Part shown: positions 1,949 to 46,839 of the stretch, piece after piece
How positions within the stretch are numbered: position 1 is the first letter of the stretch
Layout: the number at the start of each line of letters is the position of its first letter
Assembly: GCA_964187785.1 (NCBI GenBank)
Contig: OZ076414.1
Location: 47,926,001 to 47,990,000, forward strand
DNA length: 64,000 nt
Origin: Amphiscolops sp. MND2022
Lineage: Eukaryota
Direction: 5' to 3'
The notes under the pieces: model-generated
The model's database searches: none
The model's input: only the letters and a program-made list of their open reading frames with translations
What the model was told of the DNA's origin: nothing
Translations under genes and position numbers: made by a program

Positions 1949-4169
1949 AATTCAATTTTGTAATAGCACATGCTCCAGGAAAAAACAATATTGCGACCGA
2001 CTACCTATCTCGTATGGAAATGAATCCCAAGGAGAAACTCATCCTGAAAATCCGTGAAGACGTCGAAACACGGCCCTTTGAGGTAAATGTCCAATCAGCA
2101 GGCGTATCAGAAGAGGAACAAGTGGTCTTCACTGAAGACGATGACGAAACGGAAACGCAAATTTGGGAACTTAAAAAACGAAACCGTAACAACCCAATCG
2201 ACCAAGAAATCGTAATCCATATTGATACAATATCTGAAAATATTGTTGATGAAATCACAAACTTTACTCAGAATATACGTAAAACGTACCAGATTCTACT
2301 CGAGCAGTCCAAAAATCCTACGTTACAACAACTAAATGCCAAATTTTAGAACGGAAACTTTTCTGAAGAAATTCTCCAACAAGATGTTCGCTATAAACAC
2401 TATCTCAACAGTTTGGAGCGAATAGTCCTCAAGGACAAGATAGCCACGCGACAGTACAAAGATGAGACTGGACAAATTAAATACCACCAGATTCTTTTGC
2501 CGAAACACCTGCTGAGAGAGCTTTTACAAGCGGTACCTGGAACCGCTCACAAACATCCTGGCATATCTAAAATGTTGCTGGAAATTCGCCAGAGGTAATA
2601 CTACCCCGGAATATCTAAACATTTGAAAAGATGGGTAGAAGGATGCGAAACTTGTGCAAAAAATAAACGTGTTCCAAATAACTCAATAACACCTGAACTG
2701 TTCAATTCGTCCGAATGGGACCTTGGACAAGAGGACGCAATGCAGATTGACTTATTACCAAATCTGTCAACGAGTGGAGGTTATCAAACAGTGATGACGG
2801 CGATAGATGTTTTCTCTAGATACCTGTTCGCCTACCTGCTAGATGAGGCTACCGCCTGAAACGCGGCAAAAGTTCTAATCGACATCTTGACAAAACATGC
2901 ATATCTGCCTACTACAATCATCACGGACAAAGGGACTGCATTCACGTCAAAATTTATTGCAGAAAAAACACAAATTCTTGGCATCGCGATAAAATTAGCA
3001 ACTAATAAACACCCGCAAACAATTGCCAAGCTTGAAAGTACTCATGCCTCATTAAAAACAAACCTGAAAAGGGCCTCACGTGAATATCGCCATCAATGGC
3101 ATAAATATTTGCCACTAGCTGTGCTCAATTTCAATACTACCTACACCTCCAGTAATGTCTTCCACGGCCGATTTCTTTACAATGTCCTATATCATAAAAT
3201 TGGAGATAAAGCCAATAAAGGTTTCTTGCCCACAACGGAATTTGCAGAAGATTACAACAGAGGACGCAAATTCTCATCGGTAAAACTCAACAAAATGTCA
3301 TGCAGTTTTACTTGAAATGCAAACAGAAATATGACCACAAAGCCAAGGCTGCCCCTCTAAACGAGAAAGATTTCTGTTTTGTTTGTCAACCCAAAGCAGA
3401 TAAGTAAGGATCAAAAATACCGTTTAGGGACTACCGTTGGGATGGTCCTTACCGAATTGAAAAAGTACTAACCACAAGAATTATATCGTCCGGCGTTTAA
3501 ATACAAATAAAACGCAGATACTACACCGCATCAGACTGAAAACATTTGTCTCAAATACACCCTTAGAGGACAAATATTCCAAAAAAATGACAACCTGATG
3601 ACGAAATAATCATTCCCCAAGATGATTTACATACTATTTGATGGGAACAATTTTTTTGACTACAATTCTTCGAGCCGAGACAGGACGATAATGCTAACAC
3701 TGCAAAAAAGATTGTCATTTACGACAATGCTGATGACGACGCGGTAGAGCCAAGACCGGCCACCATTCGCGATGGCATGACTACACGAGATGCAAATGAC
3801 GTCACTGAAGCAATAAAAATGAACACGACGTAAGGCCGCATAACCACTATCCGAGACACATTAACCTTAAATGATGAAGATGACGTCAACGAGAACGCTG
3901 CAAAAGATAAACAACACAGCGAAATAGAGATGTCGGATTCGGCGACTAGCGAGACAACCAAAATATTGGCGCCACGCTTACCGACTCATGAAATGATATT
4001 GATGAAGGCACCTGCAATTCTTCTAAGAGTGGGGAGGATAAGCCCGTGCCCGGAACATCCGATAATGGAAAAAATGAAAAAAAACTAATGAAACATTTAG
4101 CCCTAGAGGAGGGAAATATAACCTTCGTCCTAACCCCACCCCAATTTTACTGTTTAATACAGATATTAG
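1948..4169 (+). pseudogene. pol: E1 pol remnant: RNase H C-terminus, integrase and C-terminal tail
   Basis: QFNFVIAHAPGKNNIATDYLSR; HKHPG...CETC (HHCC); QIDLLP, TDKGTAF, KLESTH (DDE region); final NLRPNPTPNF motif also seen in E2 (NLRPNLKPN). Many stops and frameshifts. Confidence 0.9.
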
Positions 4170-4199
4170 TCAGATATTTGAAATCTGAAAGTAGTTGAC

Positions 4200-6050
4200 A
4201 TCTTTTGAACATTTGGCCAAATAAGAATGAGCAGGTAAGAGCATATCGATGAGGCGGCATTTGGGGCTAGAAGTATCCACCTCATGAAACTTATTGGATG
4301 GGAGTTCTGTCCCACTCGCGGTCAGGCATAGGCAACTCAGCCGGAAGAGTTAAAATAAATTCTTGCGACTCCGCAGGCAGAAAGAACAATGAGGAAGCTG
4401 ACTATATCTGTCACTTGTCCAGGTTGATCCTTGAAGTGGGCAACGCTAGTGCGCAAATATTCCACAAACTCCACATACTCATCGCGATAATCAGACTCAG
4501 AGGCCCGTTGGACAACTCCACCCAAACAAATTGTTTGAAATAAAGCGTTGAAACAAAAGGAGACTTGCTCCATTGGCAACGAGACCAACACGTGGGGGTC
4601 GAAACAAGCCATTCCGTGGACAATATCCGCAGTAAGATGGACATCACGCAACATTGTCTCCAATAGAAACACAAAATAACCTCGGGCATTCGCTGCAAAA
4701 TTATCCCCTTCACTGGGTATTAAAGCTTCAATATTGTTGACAGGCTTCTGGAATTGTTGTCAGAAGCACTTCGAGACTGTTGGACCCTGTTCTTACAGAT
4801 GGCATCTATATCAGTTTTCAACTTCAAGCGATTCGGGAAGTCCCGGCCGGAAAGCAGACGGAGACCATCAGGGTATAGGTATAGCAGGCCCGTCCGATTA
4901 ACATCGTCAGGAATGCATTTGGAAAAGACAGCACGGGTTTAGAGCTTTCGCAAGAAACGGCAGAATTGTCCGTAGGTGAAGAAAGCGGCATCACGTTGTC
5001 CGGTTAAATTGCGGTCGAAAGACTTGACATCTAAACGTCACCCTTTCAGAAAGACGAACCTGGAAACCAAATGTCAATAAAAAGTCCATACTTACAGTCG
5101 CGGACGAAAAGGCTGAAGATCTCTAGCTTGATAAGGAAATACTCGTCCATCAGGATCATCCACTCCAGACTCTGTGGCTATAATACAAAACCAGGATGAA
5201 AACCTTGTGAGTGAAACTACCTGCTAGGGTCCTAATGATTATCATTCTTGTCGCACTCAAATCACAAGACGACCCAAGTCAAATTTCTGGTGTTGGTCAG
5301 CAATAATTAATATACGTTACTGAAAGGCAAACTAAGCGGAACACGATGTGTAACTTAATCGGTTTTGGACTCCTTGGACAGCTTGGGAGGGGGCATTCCG
5401 CGTCATGAAATCCGGGATGTTGTGCCATTGTGTCACCACCTCAGTGCTGAAGGCAGGGATGCTTCGAAGATCCAAATCACAAGCGGTAATTGCCTAGAAA
5501 ACAAATGTTTGCCTTTAGAGTACGACCTCAAATGGTCTAAGAACCTCCCTCCACTAACATGAACCCGAATACAATTCCCTAAGGAAAGGAAAGAATATTT
5601 ACCTTCGAGAGGTTGGGACACTCGAGGATCCACGACTGATCAAGATTGTCACTGCGGAAAACGACCAGTAATTTGAGTAGTGGAAAGAAGTCTGTCTTCA
5701 CGAAGAAACTCTCATACTTCTGGTGCATGAGGCCTGGCAGGGACAAGACTTCGAATCTGAAAAGGTACTGGACAGTGTGTTTGAAGAGGCCACACTGGTC
5801 GAGTGTCTGTAATATGGCGGACGTACAACTAGAGATGCTAACGAGATTGGGCTCGGCAAAGACTAAGGACAACAAGCGTGAAACCGAACCGAGGAAGATT
5901 CCTGGATAAGCTGAGGTGAGGGAATCTCAGCATAACTCTATTCGCTGGATGACATCATCCCGCCAGAATCGCACCGCCATATAACAGTAACCTTTGCGGT
6001 TTGTGAATTCCAAGGAATATGTTCCTTCCTTGGCCACTTGTACGGCAATG
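4200..6050 (-). pseudogene. E1 antisense cargo gene, 3' part (hAT-like fold)
   Basis: AVQVAKEGTYSLEFTNRKGYCYMAVRFWRDDVIQRIEL (6047 down), LLSLVFAEPNLVSISSCT... (5875-5579), LTADIVHGMACFDPHVL...RDEYVEFVEYLR (4672-4337), then RKNLF*LFRLSCLCL. Aligns with the E2 cargo gene. Confidence 0.7.
5962..6050 (+). repeat. 89-bp direct duplication flanking E2 (partner 22534-22622)
   Basis: GCCAGAATC...TACGGCAATG on both sides, 1 mismatch in 89. Confidence 0.9.
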
Positions 6051-6447
6051 TGTTACAACAGACATTCGGGTCGTTTTGCGTAGAATTTATCCTAACCGAT
6101 TTTGTCGGAGTATAAATACTCCTAGTTTCGTTTTCCGTTTTCTCATCGAAGTTATCTCTAGGGTTCTCTCTTCTTTCAGATTTTAGAAGCTTCAACATCT
6201 CCTTCTGAGATTCAATGAGGAGATTCTTGATCTCGGAAGTTATTTCCTCCTTCAAAGAAGCCCTTAAGTTCTCCAAGAGGCTATTTTCAATTCGGGGTGA
6301 TTTTGGTCTAGATGGACCCGTTACTTCTACGTCCTGGTTTGAGGAACAGGGGTTTTCCATTACTATTGGTGAAACAAAACCTTCACTTACGTTTCTATCA
6401 CCTTCTTGTTGATCATTCCTTCTTTTCTGGCTTCTTGTTGTTGACAT
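6051..6447 (-). CDS. Gag N-terminal leader inside the E2 3' LTR (132 codons, reads out into flank to 5938)
   Basis: MSTTRSQKRRND...NDPNVCCN; near-identical peptide is in frame with Gag in the 5' LTR (ORF 19336-20322). Confidence 0.7.
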
Positions 6448-8717
6448 TTTGTTGTAGAAAACACTTATCTTGAAGAATTGAAATTCTTTCGGAGATACTT
6501 TCTAACAGAGTTAGGCGAAAATGAGAGTTTGGCGAAGTTGAGAATTCAACTGAATTATACAATTGCAAAAGACTGAGTCCCTCAGCCAACTAAAATCTTC
6601 GTATATATACCCTCCTCGCATCATTTGATCACAACTAAAATTCCCAAATTTCCTTGAACAAATTAGTCATTTCCTGTATTTTTGATGAAAAATTCATTCT
6701 TTCCCAATTTTACGTCGACTTTTTGTCAATTTTTGAGACACGACAATCTTTGCTTTATATTAGTCATCAGGCATAATCACATCATTTCATCTCGGCGTCC
6801 TTTTTATTTCCTCCCAAGCAGGAAGTAGATAATACTTCAGTCTGTCAAACCGGAAATATTTCCCTGTTTTGCTGCTTTGGTTCGTAAGAAATTGACGCGG
6901 AGATGACGTTGACGTGAACAACTAAAACCTGATTTTGAATTTCCACTTGAAGAAAATGCTATGACTAATGTTTTCAGCCTTGGAATTTCCAAAGATGCTA
7001 GGAAAAATAGAACCAAAAGGTATAGAATTAGCAACGATTTTTAAATTGAATTCAATTTAGATGATTATTAATTAATTAGAACAAGTCAACGAAGTATTGA
7101 CGTTTACATTAGACTACTAAAGTAATTTAACTGCAACACTTGACCATTACAAAACTGGCTAGAACGTTACGGGAATATGACGTGTTAATCAGGAAATTCA
7201 AAGCGTAAAAATCTTCGCAAGTAAATCTTCATAACTCACGAAATTATAGATTGATGTCGTCAAATTAGATCAACGAAACAAAACAACTAGTCACTATAGT
7301 AGTTACAAATGATGAGGTATTTAAACGTGATTTTTATGTACAATTGAGGCAACAATGAACATAGTTATTGTGGAAAGATACAAATGTGGGCATTGCATTA
7401 GAAAAAATTTGATTATGTTATTAAAAATATAGCTTTCTCCAGGTCATATTTCACTGCTTCACGGACACGTCAAAACGACGTCAAGTTATTCAAAATAGTA
7501 TCCAAAGTCTGTAACAGTTAATACAAAATGTAGAGTAACAGCAGTCTCTTCTAGAATAAACGGTGACTTTAGTCATAAAGAGTAGGAAAACCCTATTTAG
7601 GTTATATTGTAACGTGATTTCAATCGGCCAGTACCCAAATTGGCGAGGCCTAGACGTAATCTGTCGGGTTTTTGTTCTAATCTTCGTTGAGCTCTAAATC
7701 GTCCTTAAACGTTTCCTTTTCGTCATTTTCATAATACCGGTATTCATTTCACTATAGTGAATGGACTAAAACAGCTATTTTGATGGATTTTGGACGTAAC
7801 GCGGACGTACGTATTAGCATTAGCCTTAGTTCGCTGGTATTGGACGTAGCATTGACGTAAATTTGGAATGGAATCTAGCTTGGTGTTATAGCTGTGACGT
7901 CACACCGACGTCTGATTTGGAATACTTTCTACCTCGTTAACTAGTTAGTGGCGGAATGCTGACGTCACGATTATAGTAATATTTGCATGTACCTTTAATA
8001 TTTGTTTCCTCAGCGACGCGGTATCGTCCTATTCTACATTAATTGCTGTTCAAAGTGCAATTAAGCTACCTTTCTTAGAAAAGACGTAAATGTTTCGGCG
8101 TGCCATCTCAATGTATTTTCTAGTTTAGATCTGATTGATGTTCTTTCCCGATTGACGACTTTGGTAATGTTTTCGTTTAGATCGGTCTATGGTCTTTGTT
8201 TCAAGACGTATTCTTAAATAAGTTTTCAGGTGGCGAATGTTTCTATTCTGACGTGATAAAAGCGTCCTGCCGGAAGTGTATGAAATCATTTTGGTTCATT
8301 CTAGTTTCTGTTCTCTTTTCCTTTTAAACTTTACGTAAGTTAGACGAACGTTTTCGTATTTCCAGTCACAGTTTATTCAAGATTGGGTTTAAAGTTTTCA
8401 AGTTAGTAGTTGAAATACCATTTGGGGAATCGCAGGCTGCACCCATGGCCTCTTCCGATCCCCACTCGTCTGCAATGGCAACCCAGACCGGGAGCGGGCT
8501 GTGACAGGGCCACTCCTCTGGGGAAAACACCTGGCTGTCTTGGCAAAAACATTAGTGGAGGAGGCCTCGTTTCAGTATCTTCCGGGTCGTCAAAGCTGCG
8601 TCTCACTTCGAGATCGTTTAGTGGGCTTGCAGGACCGAAGTTAATCTTCCTGAGGGTTCCTGGGGGCGTGATGAAATATAATATAATGAGGAATCTTCTT
8701 GATGCACCTTTTCGACA
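6051..8717 (-). repeat. E2 3' LTR
   Basis: Minus strand reads TGTCGAAAAGG...TGTTGTAACA. Colinear with 19785-22454 (2-4 differences per spot-checked 60-mer). The upstream purine tract is weak (GACGAAAGCA), so the 8717 boundary is partly inferred. Confidence 0.8.
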
Positions 8718-9053
8718 TGCTTTCGTCGGGACTTTCAGGGCTGTCTGGAATTTCTTCACTCGCTTGTGCTTCGTCGTTCTCTTCTTGTTGTGGGTGAGAC
8801 TTAGAATCGATGGAGGCCAGACTCGAGTTCAGTTTTATTTTTTGTAGCTTGCTTCAAGCGAGTCTGCAGACACATCAAAATATTCTTCCTCGTCGGCTAC
8901 AGCTTCTGCGGAGGACAGGGAATTTTCCAGTATCACCCTGTAATTGGGTATTGCCTCTCTAGGAAGAGGGGTTGAAGATCTTTCCACAAGATCTCTTTCG
9001 TCTTCACTCGACGAAATGTCAATTAAGTCATAGACGTTTTTGAGGGAGTTCAT
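8403..9053 (-). pseudogene. E2 sense accessory ORF straddling the 3' LTR start
   Basis: Acidic MNSLKNVYDLIDISSSEDE... and EENDEAQASEEIPDSPESPDE, then YFITPP...GCHCRRVGIGRGHGCSLRFP, which is preserved in both LTRs. Frameshifted. Confidence 0.55.
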
Positions 9054-9099
9054 TTTGCGTCGTCGCTGCTGAGTCGTATGTTACAGGGCTGCTGAATTT

Positions 9100-9470
9100 T
9101 TCTTTTGATTGTTCCACAATGAATTTGAGATCAATAAGGACTAAGGAGAATATTGGGATGAATCCCTCCATTCTGATTGGTTGAACAATCATTTTAATCC
9201 TTTTTAATCATCAGGTGTTGACGTTATGTCAACGTCGCTTTTTATTGGCTGCAAATTAAATTGTTTCGCTCAGCCAAGTTTGTCAACGTTATGCTGACGT
9301 CATTTTCGCTAGCTTAGCTAACTTTTGTTTTGTCACCGTTATGATGACGTCATTGTAGATCATAGGATTAGTTTTCTAACCTTAATGACCTTTTGCCGAC
9401 GTTATGTCGACGCCAATTTCGTTGGTGATTAGCCAACTTTAGGTTTTGTCACCGTTATGATGACGTCAAT
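9100..9470. promoter_or_regulatory. Putative bidirectional promoter between the divergent E2 accessory genes
   Basis: TGACGTCA at 9295, 9345 and 9461; repeated TTTTGTCACCGTTATGATGACGTCA; ATTGG (reverse CCAAT) boxes; lies between ORFs pointing away on both sides. Confidence 0.5.
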
Positions 9471-9759
9471 TTTTGGTTGTTGTTTTCATCTTCAGGTTTT
9501 GTTTTCAGATTCTGAGCTATTTCACAATCGACTCACGTCCCACTGTTTCTTCTATTGATCCCGGTGCCCAGAGCGGTAATGAATCACATTGTGTGTTCTC
9601 GGAGAGAGACGTGCGTCAGAGTGACGCAGACGACATTCGCCCACGGGTTGTTGGTAAGAACTTCATTCCCTGATCCATTAAGCTTTTGTGAATAATACTA
9701 CTATCAGATAGGCCTTTTCTGTTTCTTATTTTCACAGCTTAGATTTTCTTGAGGCGTCG

Positions 9760-12700
9760 ATGCTGGGAATGTGCTTTTCTTTTCTAGAGCCCGTGGTGAA
9801 ATCTACTCCTCTTCCTGGTACAGGTTTGGATGTTCCGCCTGTGACCACCTCTCCTGTGACGCCTTCTGCTGACCCTGCGAGTGTTCCTTGTGGGTCTTCT
9901 GCACCTGTGTCCGTTGGTGGTGAGACTCCTGTTGCGTCAGTTTCGAAGCTTGACGTTGTCTCTGCGAAATTGGTCGCTGATTCTTCTTGCGGAGGCGAGA
10001 TAGTATTCCCCACCGGAGAGAAAGATGACGTCTTTGGGACGGAATCTTCGAGAGCTGGGATCCTTGACCAGACCTCCAGCTCACCTCAATTGACTCCTTT
10101 CTTGACTGGATTCGGGAAAGCATTCCCTGGACTGACGCCGTCTGATTCCAAAAGAGAGGTAGGGTTGACATATTTTGTTTGTTCCTTAGCTATTATTTTG
10201 GTTGGCTGCTTGGTCATACATGTTGACGTTACAGTTGCGTCCGCTGCTGCAGAAAGGACTGGGACAGGCTCGTCTGGGAAGAAAAAACGTCAACTGCGCG
10301 TTCAGACTGTGAGCGGTAATGAAAATTTCTTTGTTCGTGAAAATTGAGCTTGGCCGTTAGTGTGGCACATCGAATGCGACTTTGGCTTGTTTCGTAGATT
10401 CTGGTGATTGTGCTGCTCAAGGAATCTCTGGAGTCAGTGATTTGGACGTTTTCAGGACCGAACCTGCTGAAGTTGGCCCCGTTCTAGCGAGTGAGTATTC
10501 TTGATTCTTGTCGTGGTTGTAGTCGTTGTTTTGTATCACGTTGGGTGTTCTGTAATCTGTATCTAAGTATTTGTCGGTTTTGCTAGTCCCATAGATGTAG
10601 TTTGAATGGTGTTAATCGGTAGTTGTGTCGTTTCGTAGGAATGCAAGATCTCATGACGCGGATGGAGAGCAGTCTGGAGGCAGTTGCTTTGCGCGGGAGC
10701 CCCGTCAAGAAGTACAGCAGCCGACATCATCTGCGAAAAGATATGGTGGGCGACCACCCTATCTTTAGCTTGTTTGTCAGTGGAGCTAGCAACGGGTCGG
10801 TATCGCGCTTTCACTGCATGATCTGCAAACGTGATGTTTCCATGTTGTCACGTGGGGCGAGGGAGTTCCTCCGCCATTAATCCGGCGATCGCCACTGGTC
10901 TCGAGATGTGGCATACCGGGTCCAGCAAGGTCTGCCAGTTTTTGACCAGCTCATGAAACCCCTAGAGTTGACGTCAAAGGAGCGAGCGGCATACCTAAGT
11001 CAAGATGTAGTGGATAAGGACGAGGGATTCAGTTTCCCTGAGGACCTGCTGCCGGCGTGCACTCGGGTAGATTCCACGATTCCCCTGCTCACCATGGTGA
11101 ACTGTGTCGCAGAGTTGTGTAGGTGGGGTGGCAGCTACACCTTGTTGCGCAAACTGTGGGGCAATTTCCGTGCTACTTTGGGGCGTGACAATCCCCTGTA
11201 CAGCCTCCGTTGGAACTGTCCTGAGACACTGGTTAGTAATTTCATATTGAGGAGTTTGTCTTCTTTCTTCTTTTTTTCTCTTTTCTGTCCCTCGTGGACG
11301 TATCGTGGTCGGCTTGTAAAAGTTGTGTGGCAGCTGAGTGAGTTGGGGGATTTGTGTTTTAGTCGTTGAGTTGTCGTGCCCTCTTTCCTCGGGTTCTGCG
11401 CTCCATCATTTTTTGCGTGACAGCCTTCAACTGCTACAGCGTGCGCTTTGAAGAGCATCCAGATGGCCAGTACTGCTTTGTACTAACTTGGGAGGGCAAT
11501 ACCCTATTGGACCTTTGCATCAATGTCGAGCCTTCGGGTCAGCGGGTACCCCAGTCAGAGTTGTCGTCCCTGTCTCGCATCAAAACAAGTCTGCCTTCAG
11601 CCTCCTTCCCCGTCAGCATTCGTGGTGTCAGCCCTTCGATTCTGCGAGTACTCAGCGACGAACGCAGTGACGGGCATCGTTTTGTGTATGCTCGGGAGTT
11701 CTCTGCTGATGTGTTCCTGCACTGTTATCGTGTGGCTCGTCAGGAGAATTTTGGACTGTTGGAAGTCACCACAATGGTCGATTTCTTGATGTTGCGTCTT
11801 CGCGGGGCTCTGCAGGAGCGTTGGATGGAGGACTGGCCCGAGCTCTGCCGTTGTGTGGTCGCCGGGAAGGTGTCCTTTGATGAACTGCGCGGAGTCGTGA
11901 CGGAGCTGATTTCGATTTGGAAGACTGTCCGTGAGTACGTCCGGTACACGGCCCTCGACATATCAAGAGCGAGTCCGACAAGGTGGGTATAGTTTTGTTT
12001 CAGAGTGCTATTTTGTAGTCATGCGGTAGGGTGTCGCCACCATGTGCATTTGGCTAAGTGTTCATCGTATTGTTGCTATTTAGATGCGAGGCACTGACAC
12101 ACTCGTCTATTCCGAGACGACGAACAAGCTGCGACTGGGGATGATGCTTCACGTTCTTGATCTGTGTAAGTTGTGCTGTTTTGGTTCTTTCTTTCTCTCT
12201 GTTCTGTTGTGGTTGATATTGTAGATCATTTAGTAAACTGGGTGGTGTGATCGTCGTCGTCATCAGGTTGTCGTCTAGGTATCGTGGTCTTAGTTCTCTG
12301 TTGTGTTTAGATCACTGCACTTTCGTAGAACAAAGAGCTGGACGTGGCGACTACGCATTCCATGCATATAGTGAGATATGCCAATTTGTGTACTGCTTGC
12401 TGGTTCGCAGTCGTAAGGTGTCTAGTCTGCCTCCTCTAAACGATTGGGACTCATACATGGAGCCTTCGAAACTGGACGCATTTGAGAAGGCTAGCAGTGA
12501 TGATTTCCTGGAGAACCATGAGTTTGGGGTCGCGTTGCATCGATCAAACACTGACGTGATGTGTGAATTCCGCAATCGTTGCCGGGAATTTGTGGATCGT
12601 CTGGTGGACATTATCTTGGGCCAGCAGGTCGTATCCTCCGATTTCCTGCAGGGTTGTATTGCTTTTGCCCCGAATTGCTCCTCGAAGGTGACGATCGTCA

Positions 12701-13626
12701 TGTCTTCCAGCTGTTCTCTCGGCGGTCCGCGTGCTCGAGCGTTGTGGCTGTCTCTCCGGCAGTGATGCCCAGTCGAGTCGTGAGGAGTTCGCCACATTTG
12801 TTGTCGATGCTAGGACGCGGCATCGAGAATCAGAGAAAAGTGCAGAGCAGATCAAAGATGTCACCAAGTGTCTGTTCTCTGATTACAGCTTCATGTCACG
12901 GAGAAGTCTGGTCCAGGTGCTGAAAGTGTGCTGTTTGGTGGTAGATCGCCCCCAAAGAAAAATGCCGGACATTGAGATTGATTTGAAAGACTGTGCTGTT
13001 CCGGTTGCCGTTGTGACGTCGTCTCTGAGGGGCGTCCAAAGTCTCGTGTCCTCCCCCGGGTACAAGCAAGGCGCTTTCTTCACCCAGTGAACAATGGAAA
13101 GCGTTCGCGATGCCATTGCCAGTAGTCGCGATTTCATGTCCTGTGCTAGTTTCGACCCTCGGGAGAGTGTGTCGTGTGGCGATCGTTCGTCCTTTGTGCG
13201 AAAATATTCTTCAGCTTTTGATGCTTACTTGAGCCGTAAGAAGAGTGAAGCCACGAAACAATTGCACAGTGCAAACCGACAGCCGCGCTGCGTCCTTTTT
13301 CGGAATCTGGTGGTTCCGGTGGGTCAAGTGTCTGTGGTTCTCTTCGCTCTGCTGTACTGCCCTCTCCTTCGTTTGCTGTTGCTTCTCCTGGATCTGGTTC
13401 TGATAGTGGGACGTCGAGGCAGCGTACGTATACCGCTGAGTCTTCCCTGGCTGCTATTCCTGGACAGAAAAAGGAGCTGAAACCAGTCGATAAGGAGCCC
13501 GTTGCTAAGAAAGAGTCGTCAAAGACGAGTTCAGGAAAAGAGTCTGTGAAAGATCAGGATAAAGATGGGCAGAAAGGTACAGTGCCGACTAGAAAACGAC
13601 CGGGAGCTAAATCCAAGAGCGAGTGA
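9760..13626 (+). pseudogene. E2 antisense spliced cargo gene: disordered N-terminus, BED/TTF-type zinc finger, hAT-like fold
   Basis: FHCMICKRDVSMLSRGAREFLRH*SGDRH. Phase-0 GT-AG intron 11232-11362 joins ORFs 10908 and 11366 in frame. Further candidate introns at 10159-10234, 10492-10638, 11983-12310. C-terminal DFLQG/LYCFCPELL...REEFATFVVDAR; K/S-rich tail ends 13626. Confidence 0.7.
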
Positions 13627-13911
13627 AATTTGCAACTGAGACTTTGTATAACTGCCGTTTTGAGATTGTAGTGATAGTCTTTATAGTTCTATAGTGCATA
13701 CTGATATATCAGGTTGTATTTGTTGTATGTTTGATGATTTTATTTTGCTGGAGTTAGAAAATTAGATGGTGGTAAATGGCTCCCCAGCAAAATAGTACAG
13801 AACAAGTTTGGAGTCAGAAAAAAAACGAGTAAAGCAATAAAAAGTAGAATGCCTGTAATTGAAGTTGTCAGGTCGGTTCGATCTGGACACTTGATAATGC
13901 TCTTTTTCTTC

Positions 13912-16900
13912 TTATTGAGTCGTAGTGATGGCGTCAAGTCGTCTGAAGTCAGGATTAGCGTTGGGTTTGAGATTAGGTCGTAAATTGTATTTTGCTGTTT
14001 TCCTTGGATTGTATCCAACTACTGTAGGCGGCGATTTTGGGGGAATAGGTGGACTTTCAATAGGTGGGGGGCGACGTATATATGGATTATCCTCCACGTT
14101 TGTAGTAAGATTCGAAAAGTCCGGAGACGGCGGCGCTGCGTCGTTCTCAGTTTCAAGCTGATTTTCCGGTACTTGTTGCGTCGCTGTTTCGTCCTGCGTG
14201 TTCGTTACTTTTTGTGTTTCTGCTTGCTGATTATTGTGTATATTCTCTCGCGTCTCGTGTTCGTCAATTTGTTTCTTGAAATCCATTTCCCACGAAACTG
14301 CGTACCACTCATTGTGTGACATTTTGACATCTGGATCCGGAAGATATTCGCTTGCTTGTACCGTGACGTCTGGCATACGTTGTTCTGGCTCGTAGTGTCG
14401 TATGCGAATTCTGTGAAGCGTTTGTGTATATCTTGTGCCAAGTTTTCGTATCGTTTAGTTGTTATTGGAAAGCACTTTGATCACTACATACGGTCCAGTC
14501 CAGATGCAATCTTGGAACGCAAGTTTTGTCGACTAGTTGTCGGCTTTCGCGTTAAGTATGTAACAATATTCATTGATCTTCAGTGGAGCTGCGGACGCTT
14601 TGCGGTTGTAATATTTTTTATATTTGAGGTAGGAGAGCATGATGTTATCTTTCGCCGTCGCTCGTATCTCATCAATTTGTTTCTGGATTTGCTCTGATAT
14701 ATCTGAGTTGGGCGTAGTTTTCCATTTTGGCTTGATTCCCAGTTTTAAGTCAAGGACATTGTAAGGTATTCGTCCGTGGAATACTGTAGATGGTTCGCAG
14801 CCTAGAGTTTCGTGGTATGTTGTGTTATAGTTCCTTACCGCGATTTGAACATATTTGTGCCACATTGAGCGTCTTTCTCCCGTCGAAACTTTTAGTGCTG
14901 TTTTGATTGCAGCGTGTGTTCTTTCCAAAATGCCAATCGTTTGTGCATGCTTCGTGGACGCGTGGCTAATTTGGATTTCGAGGATCTGTGCTACTTCGGT
15001 TACGATTTCTGATCGGAATTGCGACCCTTTATCCGATAGAATCAGTGTTGGAAAGTATGCATGTATTGTCATGACGTCGACAATGCATCGTCCGATTGTT
15101 TTCGCTGTGACATTCTGCGTTGGATATGCAAATAGGTAGCGTGAAAATACATCGATCATTGTAACAATGTTTTGGTATCCTGCAGAGTTTGGTAGGTTCG
15201 GTAATATATCAATTTCGAGGATATCTTCCGGGCCTAGGACGTGTTCTGTATTGTTGATCATCTTCGGTCTGATTTGGCTGCTGCTGATTCGTTTGTATTT
15301 GATGCAGTCTTCACATTGCATTACCCACTGTTTGATTCTTGTTGCTAAACTGGGGTAGTAATACTTTGATTGGCATTCTTGAATCATTCTTGTGATCCCT
15401 GGGTGTTTGCCCATTTGTCCATGAATTGCTTTCAAAAGTTCTGTAACCAGATGTTCGGGAATTAATATCTGATGGTGAGTAACTTGACCGCATTCTCCGT
15501 AGTATTTGCGCATTAGTACTCCGTCTTTGACTAAGAGACTGTTTTCATGTACTAGGAGACGTTTTGCTGTCGGATCAGTTTGCAAAAGGTGCTTGTCGTA
15601 TTCTTCGCATATTAGTTTTCTTTTGATTGCCTTGAATACTGGGCTTGAATCCTGTTCAACTCCGATGCGTGCATCTTCTTTTATTGCTCCAAAAGTATAG
15701 GAGGCTTTGTTGATTGGGATTGGAGTTGTTTCCTTTATGGCCAGCTTTATTTTTGTCGTTTCTTCGTCGAGTGCACTTTGTTTTGCTTGTTCTTTTTGTC
15801 GGAGGATTTCTTCTTCGGTTTCTATTGTTTCATCTGGAAGAAAGAAAAGTTGTTCTTCGTCTGCGACGTCAGTGGATTGTAAATTGACTTGTACTGGACG
15901 GATTGTAATGTCTTCTCGGATTTTTAATTCAACTCTTTCTTTGGGATTGAGTTCAATGCGCGACAAGAAATCGGCCGCTGTGTTCTGCGCACCAGCCACG
16001 TGCATTATGTGAAAGTTGAATTGTAGCACCTAATCACACGCGTTCCACAGCGTAGGTGGTATGACTTTCGTTTGAAAGAAGCGCGTGACTGATCTGTTAT
16101 CGGTCATTACGAGTGTTGGTAGCGTCGTTTCCCACAAAATATGGCTAGATCCTAGGAATGCATGGTAAATTGCCAGGAATTCTTTGCAATAGATAGACAT
16201 TTTCATTTGAGCTGGGGAAAATACTTTCGATCCGAATGCGACTGGGGCAAACGTTTTCTTTTTGGAGTTGATTTTCTTGTCATTGTTTTCTTCAATCATT
16301 AACGCATAGCCAGAGGCTCGAAAGCTGGCATCCGTCATTAGGACGTATTGTTGTCCTGTGATTGGTTGTTTGAGAGCCAATCCGCAGGCTTGCGCCAGAG
16401 CTGCGTTGATCGCTTTGTAATGGTCGAGTAGCTCTTCAGTGATTTTGATTTGTTTATCTGCTTTCAACAGCTCATAGAATCCGAGTAATTTTTCAGATAA
16501 TCGCGGGATGTAGTTGCGATAATAATTGACAAAAGCCGATGTATCTTTGTACTTGCTTTTTTGATTTCGGAAATCGTACATTTGCTACGAATTTTTGTAA
16601 TTTATGGTCTTGGGGGCAATTCCTTGCGGAGTGATTGTTCTTCCAAGAAATTCGACTTCAGTCACCCCAAAATGGCATTTTTCTATGGTTAGTTTGAGCC
16701 TCGCTTGTCTGATGCATTCGAAAACAGCCCGGATGTTGCGTATCAGCTGCGTCACTGAATTGGCCGCAATCCCAATGTCATCCACATATTGTGCGCACTG
16801 ATCTGCTTTGATTACTTTGTCTAAGTATTCTCTCATGAAACTTGAGAATGCTGATAAAGCGCTGCTGATAAAGGGCGAACGTCCTGCTTGCGAAGTTAAA

Positions 16901-18595
16901 TGCCAGCATTTCTATAGATCTTTGATCTGCCATCTGTAAGCAGTGGTATGCTTGCGAGCAGTCTAGTTTGCAAAACAATTTTTTACCAGCTAGGTGTTGA
17001 GCTGCGTCTGACAAGGTGCTAACTGGATGGTTATTGTTGATGTAGTCATCTGAGATTAGTGCGTTTATTTTTCGCAGGTCGACAAGTAGACGTAACTTGT
17101 CATTCGATTTGCGTTGTGCAAAAATTGGACTTGCATATTTTGAGAATGGTAGGGTCGTTTTTCTGCCGTACCTGTGCATTAGCGTCAAGTCTACTGTTAG
17201 GTCTTCTTTCAAATTGATTGGTACCGGCAAGCTTCGCGTGTAAATTGGACGCTCGTCTTTCGGAGTTAGTTTGACTTTGAAGCTGTTGTTGATTCCAATG
17301 TCAAGGCGATGGCGATCAAAAACATCATTGTATTCGAATATCGTTTGCTCGAGTTGCCTCCTGTCGTTGCCTCTGGTTTAGTTCACGGATTTCTTTTCAG
17401 GATCCGTCGTTGGATTGGCGTATGCTCTTCTTCATTTCCTGGATTCTCGGGTGTGGGGAACCTGAGAATTTCGTCACTTTGATCAGTTTCGTTGGATTTC
17501 ATGAGATAATTTACGTACATGTGGGTAACATCAGGATCTTCTAGCAGTTTGAGTGCAGCGGCGTCTACTGGTCGTATTTGTTTCGTGTCCTCGGGTTTGA
17601 GGATTTGTAGTTCCGCCAGTTTTGTGTGATTATTTATTGTATGAGGGAAATCCGTTAAGTTGGCGATTCGGATGTTGAGCTTTTTATTGTGGGCTGTCGC
17701 CAGTGCTGGTGCGACAATAATTGTTGCTGTTTCATCAAATTGTGGCAGTGGTTGTACCGCACCAGTGACGTCATTCGTGTTTGTGGTTATTACTATTGCG
17801 TTCACTGTTGTCTGTTGGTGCGGTAGCGTTTGATTTCCTTCTGCCATTATTTGGAGCGGTTTCGGATTACATTTTTTCATCTCGTCTGTCATGGCTAGCG
17901 TCATTTCGACGTGCGGAAAATTGATGGTTCCATTGGCAGTGTCAATTACTGCTTGGTGATTTCTCATGAAGTTCAATCCTTTGATAGGAAATGACGTTTT
18001 CGATAGGATGACGAAGGTATCCGTGAAAGTATATGTCCCAATGTTGAACTGAGTGTCCGCTGTGGCTATTGGTTGCTCTAGTTGTGCGTTTGCGCATTCA
18101 ATCTTGAAGGGAGGCTGGGGTATTCTTTTATGACACACTATCGCTATTCATTTTGATCGCGTTGTAGTCTGACCAGGACATGGCGTTGATGAACGCGCCT
18201 GAATCGACAAGTCCATCCTTTGTTATTTCTCCAACTTCAAGCGGGAGATAGAGCATCCTTCTCTTTTTCTTGAGGATTATTGTCGAGTGGAGGGGTATAT
18301 ACGTCTCTCCATCCTTTTTAGTGACATACTCTTTGATAGAGTTGAGAGATGCGGGGAAATCGTTTGTGAAGATAAGTGCTTGAGTGGAGCCGTTAGTATC
18401 TTCCTTAGTTTGTGGTGACGATGGTTGGTCGTTCTGGGCGTTGTCGTTGTATTCTATCTTGTTTGCAATGGTGAATTCTGTGTTGGTGAGGGGCGGCTGG
18501 GTGGAAAGGTCCATGTTTTGTTTTGAATTATCCCGATAATCTTTATCTTGGGGGTAAGTTTTTCCGTGTTCAGTTTGGATTTGTGGTCTTTTCAT
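13912..18595 (-). pseudogene. pol: E2 pol: protease, dUTPase-like linker, RT, RNase H, integrase
   Basis: LVDSGA (protease); LRLLVDLRKIN, KLDCSQAY, QYVDDI (RT); MTDASF (RNase H); HGQMGKHPG...CEDC, EIDILP, SDKGSQF, ILERTH (integrase). Broken by frameshifts and stops. Confidence 0.95.
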
Positions 18596-18747
18596 GGAGG
18601 CGAGTGCTTGTCGTCGTAGCCACTCCTCTGTTGGTGTACCATTGCACTCGATTGTTACGTTAATGACGTATGTGGTAGGGGGATCTTCTGTTGCATACGC
18701 CCTTGCGACTACTGTTTCCCCGAAGCGCAGGCGCGGCGTAATTAGTT

Positions 18748-20180
18748 TTATGACTCAGTGACAGAATTGGCTGTCGTTGGTTGGACGGGGATGTCCCTCT
18801 TTGGTTCTTGAGTATTGTGACGCTTAGGTCGTGGATCGTTGGCAGAGTTGGCTCCATTCCAACAATCTTCCGTTTTGTGTGGTTTGCAGCAAGTGTCGCA
18901 TTTAAGCGGTTTGCCTGCACTAGAGTTGGCTTGGCCATTGTTTCTCTTGGTTTGCATCCATTTATCCCTTTTCATTTTTCTACATTCTGCTTTGTAGTGT
19001 CCAAATTTGTTGCAGTAGAAGCGATACCCCTTTTTGACGTTTTGCGTTGTGTTGTCGACCTGTTTGGACTCAGTTTTTGGTGGGGCTGGTTCTACTTTGT
19101 TTAGTGGTACCAGGGTCACTTCGTCTGGCGCCCCAAGGCCGTTAAGCCTCATTTCCTTTTCTAGGTGGAGTACGATGTCGTTCTAGGGTTTGTCTTCAAG
19201 ATACGCCCTATTTAGTATTTTCTTTACGTGGTCTGGCATTTTTGCATAGATCGACTTATCAATAAATTGTTGGGCTTCAGAGCCGAAGGCTTCTTTGGCA
19301 GTTTTTTGAAGTACATCCAGAAATTCGTGGAGTTTCTAGTTCGAGGGATCAAATTTGAGCGCATCCCATTCGCATCTTGCTTTGGCCATGGACAAATAGT
19401 ATCCGAAACGTCGTTTGAAAATCGTCATTATTTCATCAAGGGAATCTTTTTTCGTGTCTTCAATATTGCAAAACGCCTGTAAGGCGTCTCCTCTGAGCAG
19501 GGAGTGAAAATAGTTTATTTTTTGGATTTCCGTGAGACGTGGGTACATTTTGATGTTATTACGAAAAAGGTCTTCGAAAAGCTCAAATTTTTCCGACTTC
19601 CCGTCGAAGGTTGGGAGTGACGCCGTTAGTGCTTTTGGCATGGGCAGTGCAGTTCCATCATTTTTATCCGTTGCAAATAAAGTCCTTGCCACTACTGGAC
19701 GTTTTTTTGACGTCGGTTGACTTTGAGACCGGGCTTTCGTTCTTTTTGGCTGGTTTGTGGAGTCGGTTAGGACTCCTGTCACCATGTTACGACATACATT
19801 CGGGTCGTTTTGCGTAGAATTTATCCTAACTGATTTTGTCGAAGTGTAAAAACTCCTAGTTTCGTTTTCCGTTTCCTCATCGAAGTTATCTCTAGCGTTC
19901 TCTCTTGTTTCAGATTTTAGAAGCTTCAACATTTCCTTCTGAGATTCAATGAGGAGATTCTTGATCTCGGAAGTTATTTCCTCCTTCAAAGAAGCCTTTA
20001 AATTCTCCAAGAGGCTGTTTTCATTTCGGGGTGATTTTGGTCTAGATGGACCCGTTACTTCTACGTCCTGGTTTGAGGAACAGGGATTTTCCATTACTAT
20101 TGGTGAAACAAAACCTTCAATTACGTTTCTATCACCTTCGTGTTGATCATTCCTTTTTTCTGGCTTCTTGTTGTTGACAA
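18748..20180 (-). pseudogene. gag: E2 gag including the in-LTR leader
   Basis: LPTFDGKSEKFELFEDLF..., knuckles (R)FYCNKFGHYKAEC and CDTCCKPHKTEDC. Leader start codon is TTG here (20180) versus ATG in the 3' LTR; internal stops. Confidence 0.85.
19770..19784 (-). promoter_or_regulatory. E2 primer-binding site TGGTGACAGGAGTCC, probably tRNA-Leu
   Basis: Directly follows the LTR end ...GTCGTAACA; resembles the complement of Leu tRNA 3' ends (TGGTGTCAGGAGT) at 12 of 13 positions. tRNA identity is inference. Confidence 0.75.
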
Positions 20181-22454
20181 TTTGTTGTCGAAAAGACTTA
20201 TCTTGAAGAATTGAAATTCTTTCGGAGATATTTTCTAACAGAGTTAGGCGAAAATGAGAGTTTGGCGAAATTGAGAATTCAACTGAATTATACAATTGCA
20301 AAAGACTGAGTCCCTCAGCCAACTAAAACTTTCGTATATATACTCTCCTACCATTATTTGATCACAACTAAAATTCCCAAATTTCCTTGAACAAATTAGT
20401 CATTTCCTGTATTTTCGATGAAAAAATCATTTATTCCCAATTTTACGTCGACTTTTCGTCAATTTTTGAGACACGACACTCTTTGCTTTATATTAGTCAT
20501 CAGGCATAATCACATCATTTCATCTCGGCGTCCTTTTTATTTCCTCCCAAGCAGGAAGTAGATATTACTTCAGTCTGTCAAATCGGAAATATTTCCCTGT
20601 TTTGCTGCTTTGGTTCGTAAGAAATTGACGCGGAGATGACGCTGACGTGAACAACTAATACCTGGTTTTGAATTTCCACTAGAAGAAAAATGCTATGACT
20701 AATGTTTTCAGCCTTGGAATTTCCAATGATGCTAGGAAAAATAGAAACAAAAGTTATAGAATTAGCAACGATTTTTAAATTGAATTCAATTTAGATGAAT
20801 ATTAATTAATTAGAACAATTCAACGAAGTATTAACGTTTACATTAGAGTACTAAATTAATTTAACTGCAACACTTGACCATTACAAAATTGGCTAGAACG
20901 TTACGGGAATATGACGTGTTAATCAGGAAATTCAAAGCGTACAAATCTTTGCAAGTAAATCTTCATAACTCACGAAATTATAGATTGACGTCCTGATGTC
21001 GTCAAATTAGATCAACGAAACAAAACAACTAGTCACTATAGTAGTTACAAATGATGAGGTATTTAAACGTGATTTTTATGTACAATTGAGGCAACAATGA
21101 ACATAGTTATAGTGGAAAGATACAAATGCGGGCATAGCACTAGGAAAAATATGATTATGTTATTAAAAATATAGCTTTCTGCAGTTCATATCTCACTGCT
21201 TCACGGACACGTCAAAACGACGTCAAGGTTTTCAAAATAGTATCCAAAGTCTGTAACAGTTCATACAAAATGTACAGTAAAAGCACTCTTTTCTAGAATA
21301 AACGGTGACTTTAGTCATAAAGAGTAGGAAAAACCCTATTTAGGTTATTTTGTAATGTTTTTTCAATCGGCCAGTACCCAAATTGACGAGGCTTAGACGT
21401 AATCTGTCAGGTTTTTGTTCTTATCTTCGTTGAGCTCTAAATCGTCCTTAAACGTTTCCTTTTCGTCATTTCCATAAGACCGGTATTCATTTCACTATAC
21501 TGAATGGACTAAAACAGCTATTTTGATGGATTTTGGACGTAAGGCGGACGTACGTATTAGCTTTAGCCTTAGTACGCTGGTATTGGACGTAGCATTGACG
21601 TAATTTTGGAATGAAATCTAGCTAGCTGTTATAGCTGTGACGTCACACCGACGTCTGATTTGGAATACTTTCTACCTCGTTAACTAGTTAGTGGCGGAAT
21701 GCTGATGTCACGATTATAGTAATATTTGCATGTATCTTTAAGATTTGTTTGCTCAGCGACGCGGTATCGTCCCATTCTACATTAATTGCTGTTCAAAGTG
21801 CAATTAAGCTACCTTTCTTACAAGAAGCCGTAAATGTTTTGGCGTGCCATCTCAATGTATTTTCTATTTTACATCTGATTGATGTTCTTTCCCGATTGAC
21901 GATTTTGGATATGTTTTCATTTAGATCGGTCTATGGTCTTTGTTTCAAGACGTATTCCTAATTAAGTTTTCTGGTGGCGAATGTTTCTATTCTGACGTGA
22001 TGAAAGCGTCCTGCCGGAGGTGTATGAAATCATTTTGGTTCATTTTAGTTTCTGTTCTCATTTCCGTTTAAACTTTACGTAAGTTAGACGTACGTTTTCG
22101 TATTTCCAGTCACAGTTTATTTAGGATTGGGTTTGAAGTTTTCAAGTTAGTGGTTGAAATACGATTTGGGGAATCGCAGGCTGCACCCATGGCCTCTTCC
22201 GATCCCCACTCGTCTGCAATGGCAACCCAGACCGGGAGCGGGCTGTGACAGGGCCACTCCTCTGGGGAAAACACCTGGCTGTCTTGGCAAAAACATTAGT
22301 GGAGGAGGCCTCGTTTCAGTATCTTCCGGGTCGTCAAAGCTGCGTCTCACTTCGAGATCGTTTAGTGAGCTTGCAGGACCGAAGTTAATCTTCCTGAGGG
22401 TTTCTGGGGGCGTGATGAAATATGATGAGGAATCTTCTTGATGCACCTTTTCGA
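19785..22454 (-). repeat. E2 5' LTR, outermost 2 nt missing
   Basis: Matches 6051-8715; ends TTTTCGA then a 79-bp unrelated filler (22455-22533). Confidence 0.85.
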
Positions 22455-22533
22455 GGTAGTCTGCGACTATGATGCTTGAGATTGACCCTTCGTTACTGAT
22501 GGCTTCTTCTACGATGAACACATCCGACGACAT

Positions 22534-24387
22534 GCCAGAATCGCACCGCCATATAACAGTAACCTTTGCGGTTTGTGAATTCCAAGGAATATGTTCTTTC
22601 CTTGGCCACTTGTACGGCAATGTCCTCGGTGCAACGAAGGAAAATGTGATGGAAGATTTTTTGAAAACAAACTCACGCTAAGATAAACCAACTCACTGAG
22701 AAATCTCGCCCTACATAGATAGTGAGGTAATACATACTGTGAGGTTATCAGCTCTCCAATCGAAGTCGGGGAACCTTTAGTGGCTGGTGAAGCAAAAATA
22801 AGTCTCCTCCGTGTGGCATAAAAAGCCCATAAAAAGAGATTTCAGTCGTCTTCCTTAACTAGTCCAGGCTTGACGATCCCCCCAATGTGGCCATGTAATC
22901 GTTATAGAAAAGGAAACTGTCTCCGATGTTCACGAGAGGGGCATCAATGAAGAACAGCTTCTCTTCTTCCAACTCTAGAGGGGTAAGGATGTATCCCTCT
23001 TTTCCTCGGACTTGGTGAGTCACTCTGCCCGTGTCGGCATCAAGTTCTCTGAGATGTTCGAACCTCCACCGTTGGTCGCGTCGTAAGTGTCCCTCAGTCT
23101 TGTAATGACGTAGATTCTCTCGTGCGTCTTTGAAATAGATTGATACGTTTGCTTTACATATCTGACAGTAAAATTTATACCGGTTATGGATGGGATCAAG
23201 CGGCATAGAGACAAAGGTCCTTGTCCATTGAATTCCTTCAAAATAGGCATCTTTCATGACTTTGCTTGGCTTACACAGCATTCTTCTTCGTTTACGTGGA
23301 GGACTAGTAACGACAGTGACAGGTGAATGCGCTTGGGCGAGGAACGCCAACGGCCTATAATCTCCACTGCTGTAGCTGCTGCAAGAATTTTGAGTCAACA
23401 CTCTAGTCGGATCTGAATTAGTCGTTTTTGTATCCAGGATCCTGGAAGCGGAAATGGTTGGCGGATTGGCCTCAGAGGAAGTCTCGAAGTTACGGAGATC
23501 CTTATCCGAGTTTAGCGCCCCGCTCCTGTATCCATCACTATCTGCGGCGGTGCTTTCTCCCCCTGAACTGGACTCATATCCTGGACCGGGGGTACCAGCT
23601 CTACGAGGGATGTTCCGGGATGGGCGCTTGTGCAAAAGGTTTCCTTTAGTGACCTTTCTTAGCAATGATTTCATCCTTTGAATAATGAAATCACAGATTC
23701 GTTGGCTATCGTACGCAAGATCGTAAAAATCTGCCCTCACTGAAAGCAATGGTCGCGTGGCCTGCAGGCAGTTCAACTGGCTCGTAAGTAGTAAAATATT
23801 TCCTAATGGCATCTGTTTCGCTTGGGGTTGATTTTCTCTCGGATGCAGACACCTTGGTCCTATAGAGTGCCTGCTCAGAATCACTATTCCCTGACGATTG
23901 GCGCAGTTCCTTGTCAAAGTCAGGAAAGACATCTGGGTCAAGCGTGAATGTGCTAGGTTTGGCAGTGGGCAAATCAACCCTGGAGCTGTCAAAAAGTTCG
24001 CCCGGGTCACTCGTATCAGAGTAGAGGCCTCCACAATCAGAAGTTTCGGACTGGGGTTCTTCAGCATTCTGATTAGCCACATTTGGCAATTGACCCACGG
24101 TTACCAGCAACGGCTCAGACTCGGATAATTTAGCTATCTCAGGAAGGCTCTCTTCGGTCGTTTGGGCTGGATGCTCTAACTGGGGAGTTGGAGAGTTGGC
24201 TCCGGGAGCCCGTCCTCTCAATGAAAGCAGTGACACTCTCTTCGGTAGACCAGCTCAATTTGAAAGCCTGAGATTCTGGTTGGACGTCTTTTTCTAGCTT
24301 AATCTTTTCTTGGGCCTGCTTTTGTTCTTCATTACCCTGGTCAACCACAGGATTGGTGAATTCTGACATTACCCCGTCGTTCGACAT
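22534..24387 (-). pseudogene. E1 antisense cargo gene, 5' part
   Basis: MSNDGVMSEF..., long Ser/Pro/acidic region, PPRKRRR, KFYCQICKANVSIYFKDARENLRHYKTEGH; donor GTATGT at 22737 after WRADNLT; next exon KIFHHIFLRCTEDIAVQVAKERTYSLEF continues into 6050 and below. Confidence 0.75.
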
Positions 24388-46732: not shown

Positions 46733-46839
46733 TTCAATTCTTCTTTCTACTTATTCTTGCGTCTCCGGTGAATTGTCTCTTCTGTTAATAATCTTCATGA
46801 TTTCGTCATCGGCTCCCCAGTGGTATTTAAGTTTATCGT

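Follow-up and report, generated by a model that had tools for sequence, protein, structure and literature searches.

What a gene is doing behind the pol of a retrotransposon, on the opposite strand, is the question raised by a 64,000-nucleotide stretch of Amphiscolops sp. MND2022 (contig OZ076414.1, positions 47,926,001 to 47,990,000; called the window below, with coordinates counted from its first letter). Two Gypsy elements of the window, E1 and E2, each carry such a gene, here called the cargo, which an initial annotation had presented as part of a candidate new system. The analysis indicated that the cargo is under purifying selection and is swapped as a cassette among close Gypsy subfamilies. 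It probably derives from a hAT transposase. That this accessory gene, heritable with its element and likely a dead transposase, would bind the DNA of its own element and keep it transcribed against host silencing is put forward tentatively, as a reading held at a little under an even chance.

Position and prevalence of the antisense gene

Both cargo copies in the window are broken. The E1 copy has a stop within the zinc finger and frameshifts in the last exon, and the E2 copy has frameshifts, an interruption by E1 and a match that stops ~110 residues before the C-terminus. The analysis therefore turned to relatives in this genome. Searches of the 1.07-Gb assembly, with the E2 finger exon and the E1 C-terminal block as queries, gave 6544 and 4140 first-look candidates, respectively, and 150 were scored per query. 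Twenty E2-type and 18 E1-type loci were fetched (numbered with an L below), chosen across the identity range with long open frames favoured, and 20 additional diverse loci were found via a distant protein, P0206.

The cargo lay tail-to-tail with pol on the opposite strand in 18/20 E2-type, 18/18 E1-type and 16/20 P0206-found loci (52/58 in total, counting L022, which has integrase only). Six loci were without pol; L042, L043 and L048 kept only a remnant of the pol tail, and L004, L016 and L045 kept none. The reverse test gave the same picture, the cargo being present in all 17 loci picked by an E2-clade integrase. No cargo match was obtained for an unrelated Gypsy at 36-51 kb of the window. 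A third lineage (43% pol identity) likewise carried, in this arrangement, a remote homologue of the cargo (hhalign probability 77 and 80, E ~1e-5). The fixed place and orientation downstream of Gypsy pol expected from the initial annotation were thus observed, and only a minority of homologues sits elsewhere, in a DNA transposon, rather than most of them lying outside elements with long terminal repeats (LTRs) between inverted repeats of their own. The gene had also been described as occupying the env position in antisense; it was antisense in every locus with pol, so that the sense orientation of a retroviral env is lacking.

The carriers have the pol order of Ty3/Gypsy elements (protease, reverse transcriptase, RNase H, integrase). 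Four LTR-bounded copies measured 15.8-16.6 kb, a length to which the earlier word "giant" has to be scaled, with TG...CA LTRs and, in 3/4, 5-bp target duplications; a fifth extended copy, L003x, was rearranged. The LTR pairs were 99.6-99.9% identical. Outside this genome, the last-exon profile matched 1068 clusters at 50% identity in a public library, and the ten looked up were all without a name. Nothing scored in this assembly exceeded 32% identity to P0206, and therefore the cargo family probably occurs in other assemblies too.

Within the window, E1 is a minus-strand Gypsy with a broken gag-pol and its cargo on the plus strand at ~9745-13623. E2 lies on the plus strand, is older than E1 and internally deleted, and has its cargo on the minus strand at 24387-22534 and 6051-4190, E1 having inserted in exon 2 of the E2 cargo and split the gene. 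A 90-bp duplication flanks E1 (5962-6051 and 22534-22623, 89/90 identical), as against the 5-bp duplications of other copies. The features are as follows:

6050-8717, minus strand: 3' LTR of E1; its segment 6051-8715 is 95% identical to 19785-22454.
8406-9134, minus strand: second extra open reading frame (ORF) of E1, sense, head-to-head with the cargo and entering the 3' LTR; 39% to the ORF of L037x/L024x.
9745-10203, plus strand: low-complexity N-terminal exon region of the E1 cargo (tblastn with the L022 frame, 62%).
10578-11231, plus strand: zinc-finger exon of the E1 cargo, stop inside the finger; 83% to L024, donor GT after the exon.
11363-11988, plus strand: E1 cargo exon with predicted RNase H-like core and helices (sequence match and structure prediction).
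12084-12165, plus strand: predicted short penultimate exon of the E1 cargo (three-frame translation).
12310-13623, plus strand: last exon of the E1 cargo, all-helical in a model from an E2-type relative, frameshifted in E1.
13915-20322, minus strand: gag-pol of E1, split over several frames (Pfam DUF1759, zf-CCHC, RVT_1, RT_RNaseH, Integrase_H2C2, rve).
19785-22533, minus strand: 5' LTR of E1, containing the start of the gag frame, which crosses the primer-binding site.
884-1948, plus strand: LTR-like segment of E2, 5' side, 85% to 26219-27291; its opening sequence is the ORF end found at the start of the LTR in full copies.
1840-4170, plus strand: pol remnant of E2 (RNase H end, integrase, tail), with the integrase remnant at 1840-3312 and the right end judged by eye.
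4191-5028, minus strand: last exon of the E2 cargo, frameshifted, match stopping early.
5097-5177, minus strand: exon 4 of the E2 cargo, 89% to the L003 exon.
5359-5493, minus strand: exon 3 of the E2 cargo, 62% to the L003 exon.
5602-6051, minus strand: exon 2 of the E2 cargo, portion after the E1 insertion; 5962-6051 duplicates 22534-22623.
22534-22659, minus strand: exon 2 of the E2 cargo, portion before the E1 insertion.
22738-24387, minus strand: exon 1 of the E2 cargo, with low-complexity N-terminus, basic cluster PPRKRRR and zinc finger.
25443-26291, plus strand: second extra ORF of E2, sense, entering the 3' LTR; 58-68% to P0371.
26219-27291, plus strand: LTR-like segment of E2, 3' side, paired with 884-1948.

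The tail-to-tail layout first described was borne out in both elements, and every peptide string quoted for it was located in the window; the E1 string DFLQG/LYCFCPELL is present, but its halves sit in different frames. The proposed homology of the two proteins was likewise recovered, since three blocks of L003 (E2-type) matched E1-type loci (tblastn E ~1e-5 to 1e-18). The proteins aligned at 20-26% identity, with the four finger ligands (C, C, H, H) invariant in 19/19 rows.

The second extra ORF (~280 aa; also at L083:3842-4735) contains acidic patches and cysteines and gave no Pfam match, and its E1-type and E2-type versions fail to align with each other. In all four full copies examined, it faces away from the cargo, and it tracks the backbone, being 95% identical where the cargo is ~60% identical.

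Several further observations concerned the carriers. The start of the gag frame lies within the 5' LTR, and the frame crosses the primer-binding site (window 19339-20322; also L014x, L037x and L058x); the N-terminus of gag is consequently encoded in the 3' LTR as well. A dUTPase-like segment lies between protease and reverse transcriptase (L003:5046-9998, minus strand, residues 253-333; E 3e-4, just under the cut-off). At C9:48418320-48441319 (L081, L003 and L082), a 4.4-kb inverted duplication of the 3' end replaces gag and the 5' LTR; this inverted-repeat form, L003x, was rejected as a family, its junction being spanned by 1/40 scored hits. TGACGT, which resembles a cyclic AMP response element (CRE) site, occurs 36-45 times, versus ~7 expected, in E1 (6050-22533), L024x and L037x, mostly in the LTRs and upstream of the cargo, whereas E2-type copies have clusters of it in the pol tail alone.

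Predicted splicing, selection and cassette exchange

Five exons are predicted in E2-type copies, and E1-type copies have three intron positions in common with them plus extra N-terminal exons, as read from three loci (L003, L014 and L029). Only the first intron, that after the finger exon, was counted across loci. A GT was found at the profile-predicted codon boundary in 72/72 loci and an in-frame AG in 71/72, which argues for selection on splicing. The length of this intron was 68-249 bases, apart from a single value of 2339 that is a pairing artefact. An automated test of the last-intron acceptor gave 57/79, using a permissive pattern by which known cases were wrongly placed. The cargo gene is hence probably spliced. 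From the LTR replication cycle, introns would be able to persist only on the antisense strand of the element, because an intron-bearing gene in that orientation would survive reverse transcription, the genomic RNA not exposing its splice sites.

The ratio of nonsynonymous to synonymous substitution rates (dN/dS) of the cargo was 0.01-0.15 in most of the 20 pairs with measurable synonymous divergence (dS). It reached 0.19-0.38 in a few exon-2 comparisons, the high values belonging to short or very close comparisons. The cargo is under purifying selection.

Patristic distances of integrase or reverse transcriptase were correlated with those of the cargo (Mantel r 0.955, 0.971 and 0.980; n 36, 30 and 35; 0/999 permutations) in copies with uninterrupted frames, although relatedness inflates such correlations. 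The deep clades of pol and cargo match, as expected from the inheritance with the retrotransposon lineage that the initial annotation had claimed. The trees are not congruent throughout, since 1-4 strongly supported splits conflict, versus none between reverse transcriptase and integrase; these shallow conflicts, which had not been anticipated, result from mosaicism of the cargo.

This mosaicism was evident in individual pairs. L003 and L020 have a pol dS of 0.03-0.04, yet their cargos are 49-68% identical with saturated dS, and L012/L014 and L024/L037 are similar. L024x and L037x are 94-96% identical across the LTR, the second ORF and gag-pol, and ~65% identical, in patches, over the 4-kb cargo. 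Integrases that are 98-100% identical are paired with very different cargo versions, and the switch point falls within the terminal few hundred bases of pol, which move with the cassette. Near-identical backbones bearing cargo with saturated silent sites indicated that the cargo is swapped as a cassette among close subfamilies.

Origin of the protein and a second carrier

A basic cluster precedes the finger in 50/60 copies, in agreement with the nuclear look noted earlier from PPRKRRR. The language-model neighbours of the finger exon that had family names were hAT clusters (DUF4371, FAM200/ZBED5, DUF659 and zf-BED; 0.82-0.83), and hAT was named as a lead before the structure searches. The exon-2 model (predicted local distance difference test, pLDDT, 67.5) shows three strands, a helix, a short strand and a helix, followed by further helices. 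Hermes transposase (4d1q) was its top Foldseek match (E 0.016, probability 0.89; 5 of the top 9 rows), and among the families listed by VIA, Hermes alone aligned along the full model (1-197 to 148-344). The cargo would resemble hAT transposases (Hermes, PDB 4D1Q) in having an N-terminal C2H2 finger, a predicted RNase H-like core and then helices, which is the hAT domain order (PMC6027215). On these two weak independent clues, Foldseek and the language model, descent from a hAT transposase appears rather likely.

The Hermes residues taken for comparison were D180, D248, R318, W319 and E572, of which D180 and D248 are the first two catalytic aspartates (PMC6027215). At the two columns predicted to correspond to D180 and D248, D occurred in 0/85 and 0/109 rows, and the glutamate motif E-R/S-x-F/W-S was found in 0/121 cargo last exons, versus 9/10 local hATs. 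The dimerisation domain (PF05699) was not detected at E up to 1 in the 121 last exons, whereas the local hATs score 1e-11 to 1e-17. Self-comparisons of four LTR-bounded copies at E 1e-8 revealed no inverted repeats around the cargo, though short decayed ends would be missed. The cargo thus differs from hATs in lacking a conserved DDE, a dimerisation-domain Pfam match and, in Gypsy, flanking inverted repeats; given a hAT origin, loss of catalysis is likely. A still-mobile hAT nested in Gypsy was rejected, as these comparisons showed no ends, the predicted columns no DDE and the loci a fixed position.

A number of results count against the hAT assignment. The atlas neighbour scores of the finger exon were all <0.9 and serve as a lead only, and the Foldseek E of 0.016 is sub-threshold, on a model of modest pLDDT. 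In VIA, Hermes scored Z 4.2-4.6 with a root-mean-square deviation of 13-15 over 149-164 residues, or 4.5 over 97, and was outranked by signal recognition particle and ribosomal folds. The last-exon model (E2-type relative; pLDDT 90.9, all helical) gave no match in the PDB Foldseek search, a wide VIA search or a viral library, Hermes not being listed; its best VIA match (Z 6.4) was on a 62-residue hairpin, and an atlas search returned unrelated low scores only. Secondary structure and range offset, rather than a residue-level superposition, served to place the catalytic columns; E stands at the first of them in 29/85 rows, with mostly D or E in the adjacent column. Profile-profile comparison with ten local hAT transposase frames, mostly Ac-like, found nothing; a genome search for DUF4371 gave no match, its controls being likewise silent, and therefore no Buster/ZBED5-type profile was built. 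Full-length models of the cargo protein were absent from 7992 protein-collection candidates.

Furthermore, the cargo exons matched no Pfam family over the cut-off, zf-BED included, and searches against PDB sequences gave nothing useful. The lack of any Pfam, PDB-sequence or profile match to hATs would suit an accessory gene of non-transposase origin, either a captured host DNA-binding gene or a new fold, with a merely convergent likeness to hATs. This origin was judged quite improbable, since two separate exons indicate hAT by two methods and in hAT order. Dead hAT derivatives such as ZBED5/FAM200/ZNF862 are known; unlike these host-domesticated derivatives, the cargo would have been domesticated by another transposon.

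Additionally, the cargo has a second, unrelated carrier. At L042 and L043, a 35.3-kb element is inserted whose ends form a perfect 37-bp inverted repeat starting CCCC; a 2-bp target duplication accompanies each insertion. Its transposase, a 654-aa frame, matched DUF1258 over the cut-off (1.4e-9) and Transposase_21 (7.5e-4) and DUF4218 (1.5e-3) under it. Ends, duplications and Transposase_21-type transposase agree with the definition of the class, and the element is a CACTA/EnSpm (CMC)-type DNA transposon. It contains an open cargo and ~36 codons of pol tail, and the second extra ORF was not found in it. Its cargo nests among the Gypsy-borne versions L059, L140, L141 and L144-L146, so the direction was from Gypsy to the DNA transposon; the DNA transposon as cargo donor was rejected on this ground and because of the pol-tail remnant. 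The closest Gypsy-borne version among those scored is 76% identical with saturated silent sites, which leaves an old capture or a donor since lost.

Among 14 transposase copies with 90-100% identity, 12 lie no more than 40 kb from one of the 34 best-matching cargo hits; the versions concerned are 97-100%, 72-73% and 57% identical, the last known from a search match alone. The flanks of L045, L142 and L143 place the second version in the same backbone. As a control, none of 19 more distant transposases was near cargo, a count that covers only the 34 closest cargo hits.

The DNA transposon also carries 88-bp tandem arrays that are homologous to the pol tail of donor-clade Gypsies (4/4 tested); five other Gypsy copies gave no pol-tail match, and a sixth, L055, matched elsewhere. 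The 18-base core of the arrays had 276 genome occurrences, versus none for a reversed control, and 88 of the first 100 listed sites were near such a cargo copy (manual count). Short repeats were present in 25/64 pol tails, versus 1/54 integrase cores and 1/64 shuffles.

Two SET-like frames were also noticed in the DNA transposon (L133:1105-1995 and 3370-3909, minus strand; weak Pfam matches, E 0.015 and 0.075). At L138:2-1247, frames resembled, by eye, a Polinton/adintovirus capsid gene.

Possible function and relation to known systems

The favoured reading would run as follows. A hAT transposon would have inserted backwards in the 3' region of an ancestral element, losing its ends and active site and keeping the finger and scaffold. 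In the nucleus, the resulting protein would bind the DNA of the element that encodes it and sustain transcription of that element against host silencing. This self-protection would be sequence-specific and aimed at short motifs that accompany the cassette and lie in the pol tail or promoter region, and old versions would be maintained as each escapes or counters a different host response. Sequence-specific self-protection as the function is plausible, if somewhat short of probable. The several cargo versions found near copies of the DNA transposon, and the match of its arrays to the donor-clade pol tail, count in its favour as signs of a benefit that would be portable.

Several points weigh against it. 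What is said of expression, localisation and binding is predicted from sequence. Close copies of one young subfamily had dN/dS of 0.12-0.66, as expected for post-insertion decay, and the mosaicism could stem from recombination homogenising pol, without selection on cargo diversity. Lying in a disordered linker, the pol-tail repeats may be neutral, and expansion without selection may account for the arrays of the DNA transposon. On indirect evidence, DNA demethylation in the manner of VANC, the analogy ventured in the initial annotation, would be unlikely, as the observed/expected CpG ratio was ~1, CpG transitions were not raised in 5/6 pairs (ratio 2.3 in one) and there was no hypermutation; histone or small-RNA silencing would be a more plausible opponent.

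A more far-reaching version, which is doubtful, would make this an animal case of counter-silencing across transposon classes. In it, a hAT transposase would have been domesticated by Gypsy as a protector, with ancient interchangeable alleles and a target motif in the adjacent pol tail. A giant CACTA-type transposon would have taken it more than once, with the target amplified into arrays and SET-like genes aboard. If true, such an animal example, with one transposon class domesticating the transposase of another, would be surprising.

The same anatomy fits a self-limiting repressor, a dead transposase-like protein that, together with antisense RNA, would dampen its own or competing elements and spare the host. 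Truncated transposases that repress exist, such as KP of the P element. Tail-to-tail transcription can also yield double-stranded RNA, as described in the available text of PMC7264820. The family, however, is very abundant and young, judging from the candidate counts and LTR identities given above, and a gain, more readily than restraint, would explain why a second transposon took the gene up repeatedly; a repressor is accordingly considered unlikely. An integration-targeting or nuclear-import cofactor, which would tether the integration complex to chosen chromatin, is less likely still. The basic cluster and finger and the linkage to the integrase tail, the final few hundred bases of which move with the cassette, would suit it, but a DNA transposon that has an unrelated transposase and no more than ~36 codons of pol retains the cargo, target duplications differ in sequence, and nearly identical integrases accompany very different cargo versions. 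A selfish drive, or a toxin-antidote pairing of the cargo with the second ORF that lies head-to-head to it, with old alleles under frequency-dependent selection, would account for ancient divergent cargo versions on shared backbones and for the orientation of that ORF, but is highly improbable because the ORF follows the backbone and not the cargo and was not found in the DNA transposon.

With respect to known systems, calling the layout a new system was too strong, as it is known from plant and fungal elements (PMC7264820, available text). Plant Ty3/gypsy elements have antisense ORFs between pol and the 3' LTR, named aORF-3R (Grande gene23, RIRE2, Retand TRP28). As far as the accessible text of PMC7264820 and PMC11963269 describes them, these share with the cargo the position and orientation, presence in most copies, conservation, predicted nuclear and DNA-binding character and an unassigned function. 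The cargo differs in having no Transposase_28 match and a predicted multi-exon structure. It also has a probable origin in an identifiable DNA-transposon family, whereas in that text the plant ORFs are without similarity to other transposons, and neither cassette exchange nor capture by a DNA transposon was found for them (PMC7264820, PMC11963269).

Among non-plant Gypsies, the brtn gene of Boty-like elements of Botrytis is also antisense, according to the parts consulted of PMC7264820 and PMC8365987. It is a fungal gene, and its likeness to the cargo is one of layout. We also take brtn to have introns.

VANC of VANDAL elements is likewise a transposon-encoded accessory protein with family-specific versions, and tandem motif arrays are a further likeness, in the DNA-transposon carrier (PMC6719617, in part). 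Cassette exchange and the recurrent uptake by an unrelated transposon also call VANC and VANDAL to mind. The cargo, unlike VANC, has a retrotransposon as its main carrier and no CpG-methylation signature, and there is no sequence link. Bdelloid rotifer LTR elements, which share extra ORFs with Terminons, are likewise animal LTR elements whose non-env extra ORFs occur in more than one type of transposon, and they have a dUTPase in pol; their ORFs, however, are enzymes (DEDDy, GDSL) shared among retroelements, and no antisense or intron-bearing ORF was found there in the available text (PMC5408684).

No report of the cargo family, of a hAT-derived passenger in an LTR element or of a CACTA-type capture was found in a literature search that left aside most subscription papers, Repbase and supplements. 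Hence, the antisense layout is known, and the hAT-derived origin and cross-class traffic were not found in the literature as far as it was accessible. In the consulted parts of the sources, the origin and function of antisense extra genes of LTR retrotransposons are unassigned (PMC7264820, PMC11963269), and for counter-silencing proteins encoded by transposons, the best-documented cases come from plant VANDAL elements (PMC6719617). For the cargo, a candidate origin can be traced and purifying selection is clear. Its candidate copies number in the thousands, its natural versions are many and sit on near-identical backbones, and an unrelated second carrier has amplified what may be the target into arrays. 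These features make the question of origin and function directly testable, by matching each version to binding sites.

Apart from E1 and E2, tandem 97% identical copies of an unrelated Gypsy without cargo occupy 35728-50369 of the window. A 356-bp unit is present in six copies (98-99% identity) at 31204-33329, and nested near-perfect palindromes of 51-112 bp lie at 55427-55862. A flanking gene, of a kind that suggests an animal, encodes ASC channel, CUB and LDL-receptor domains.

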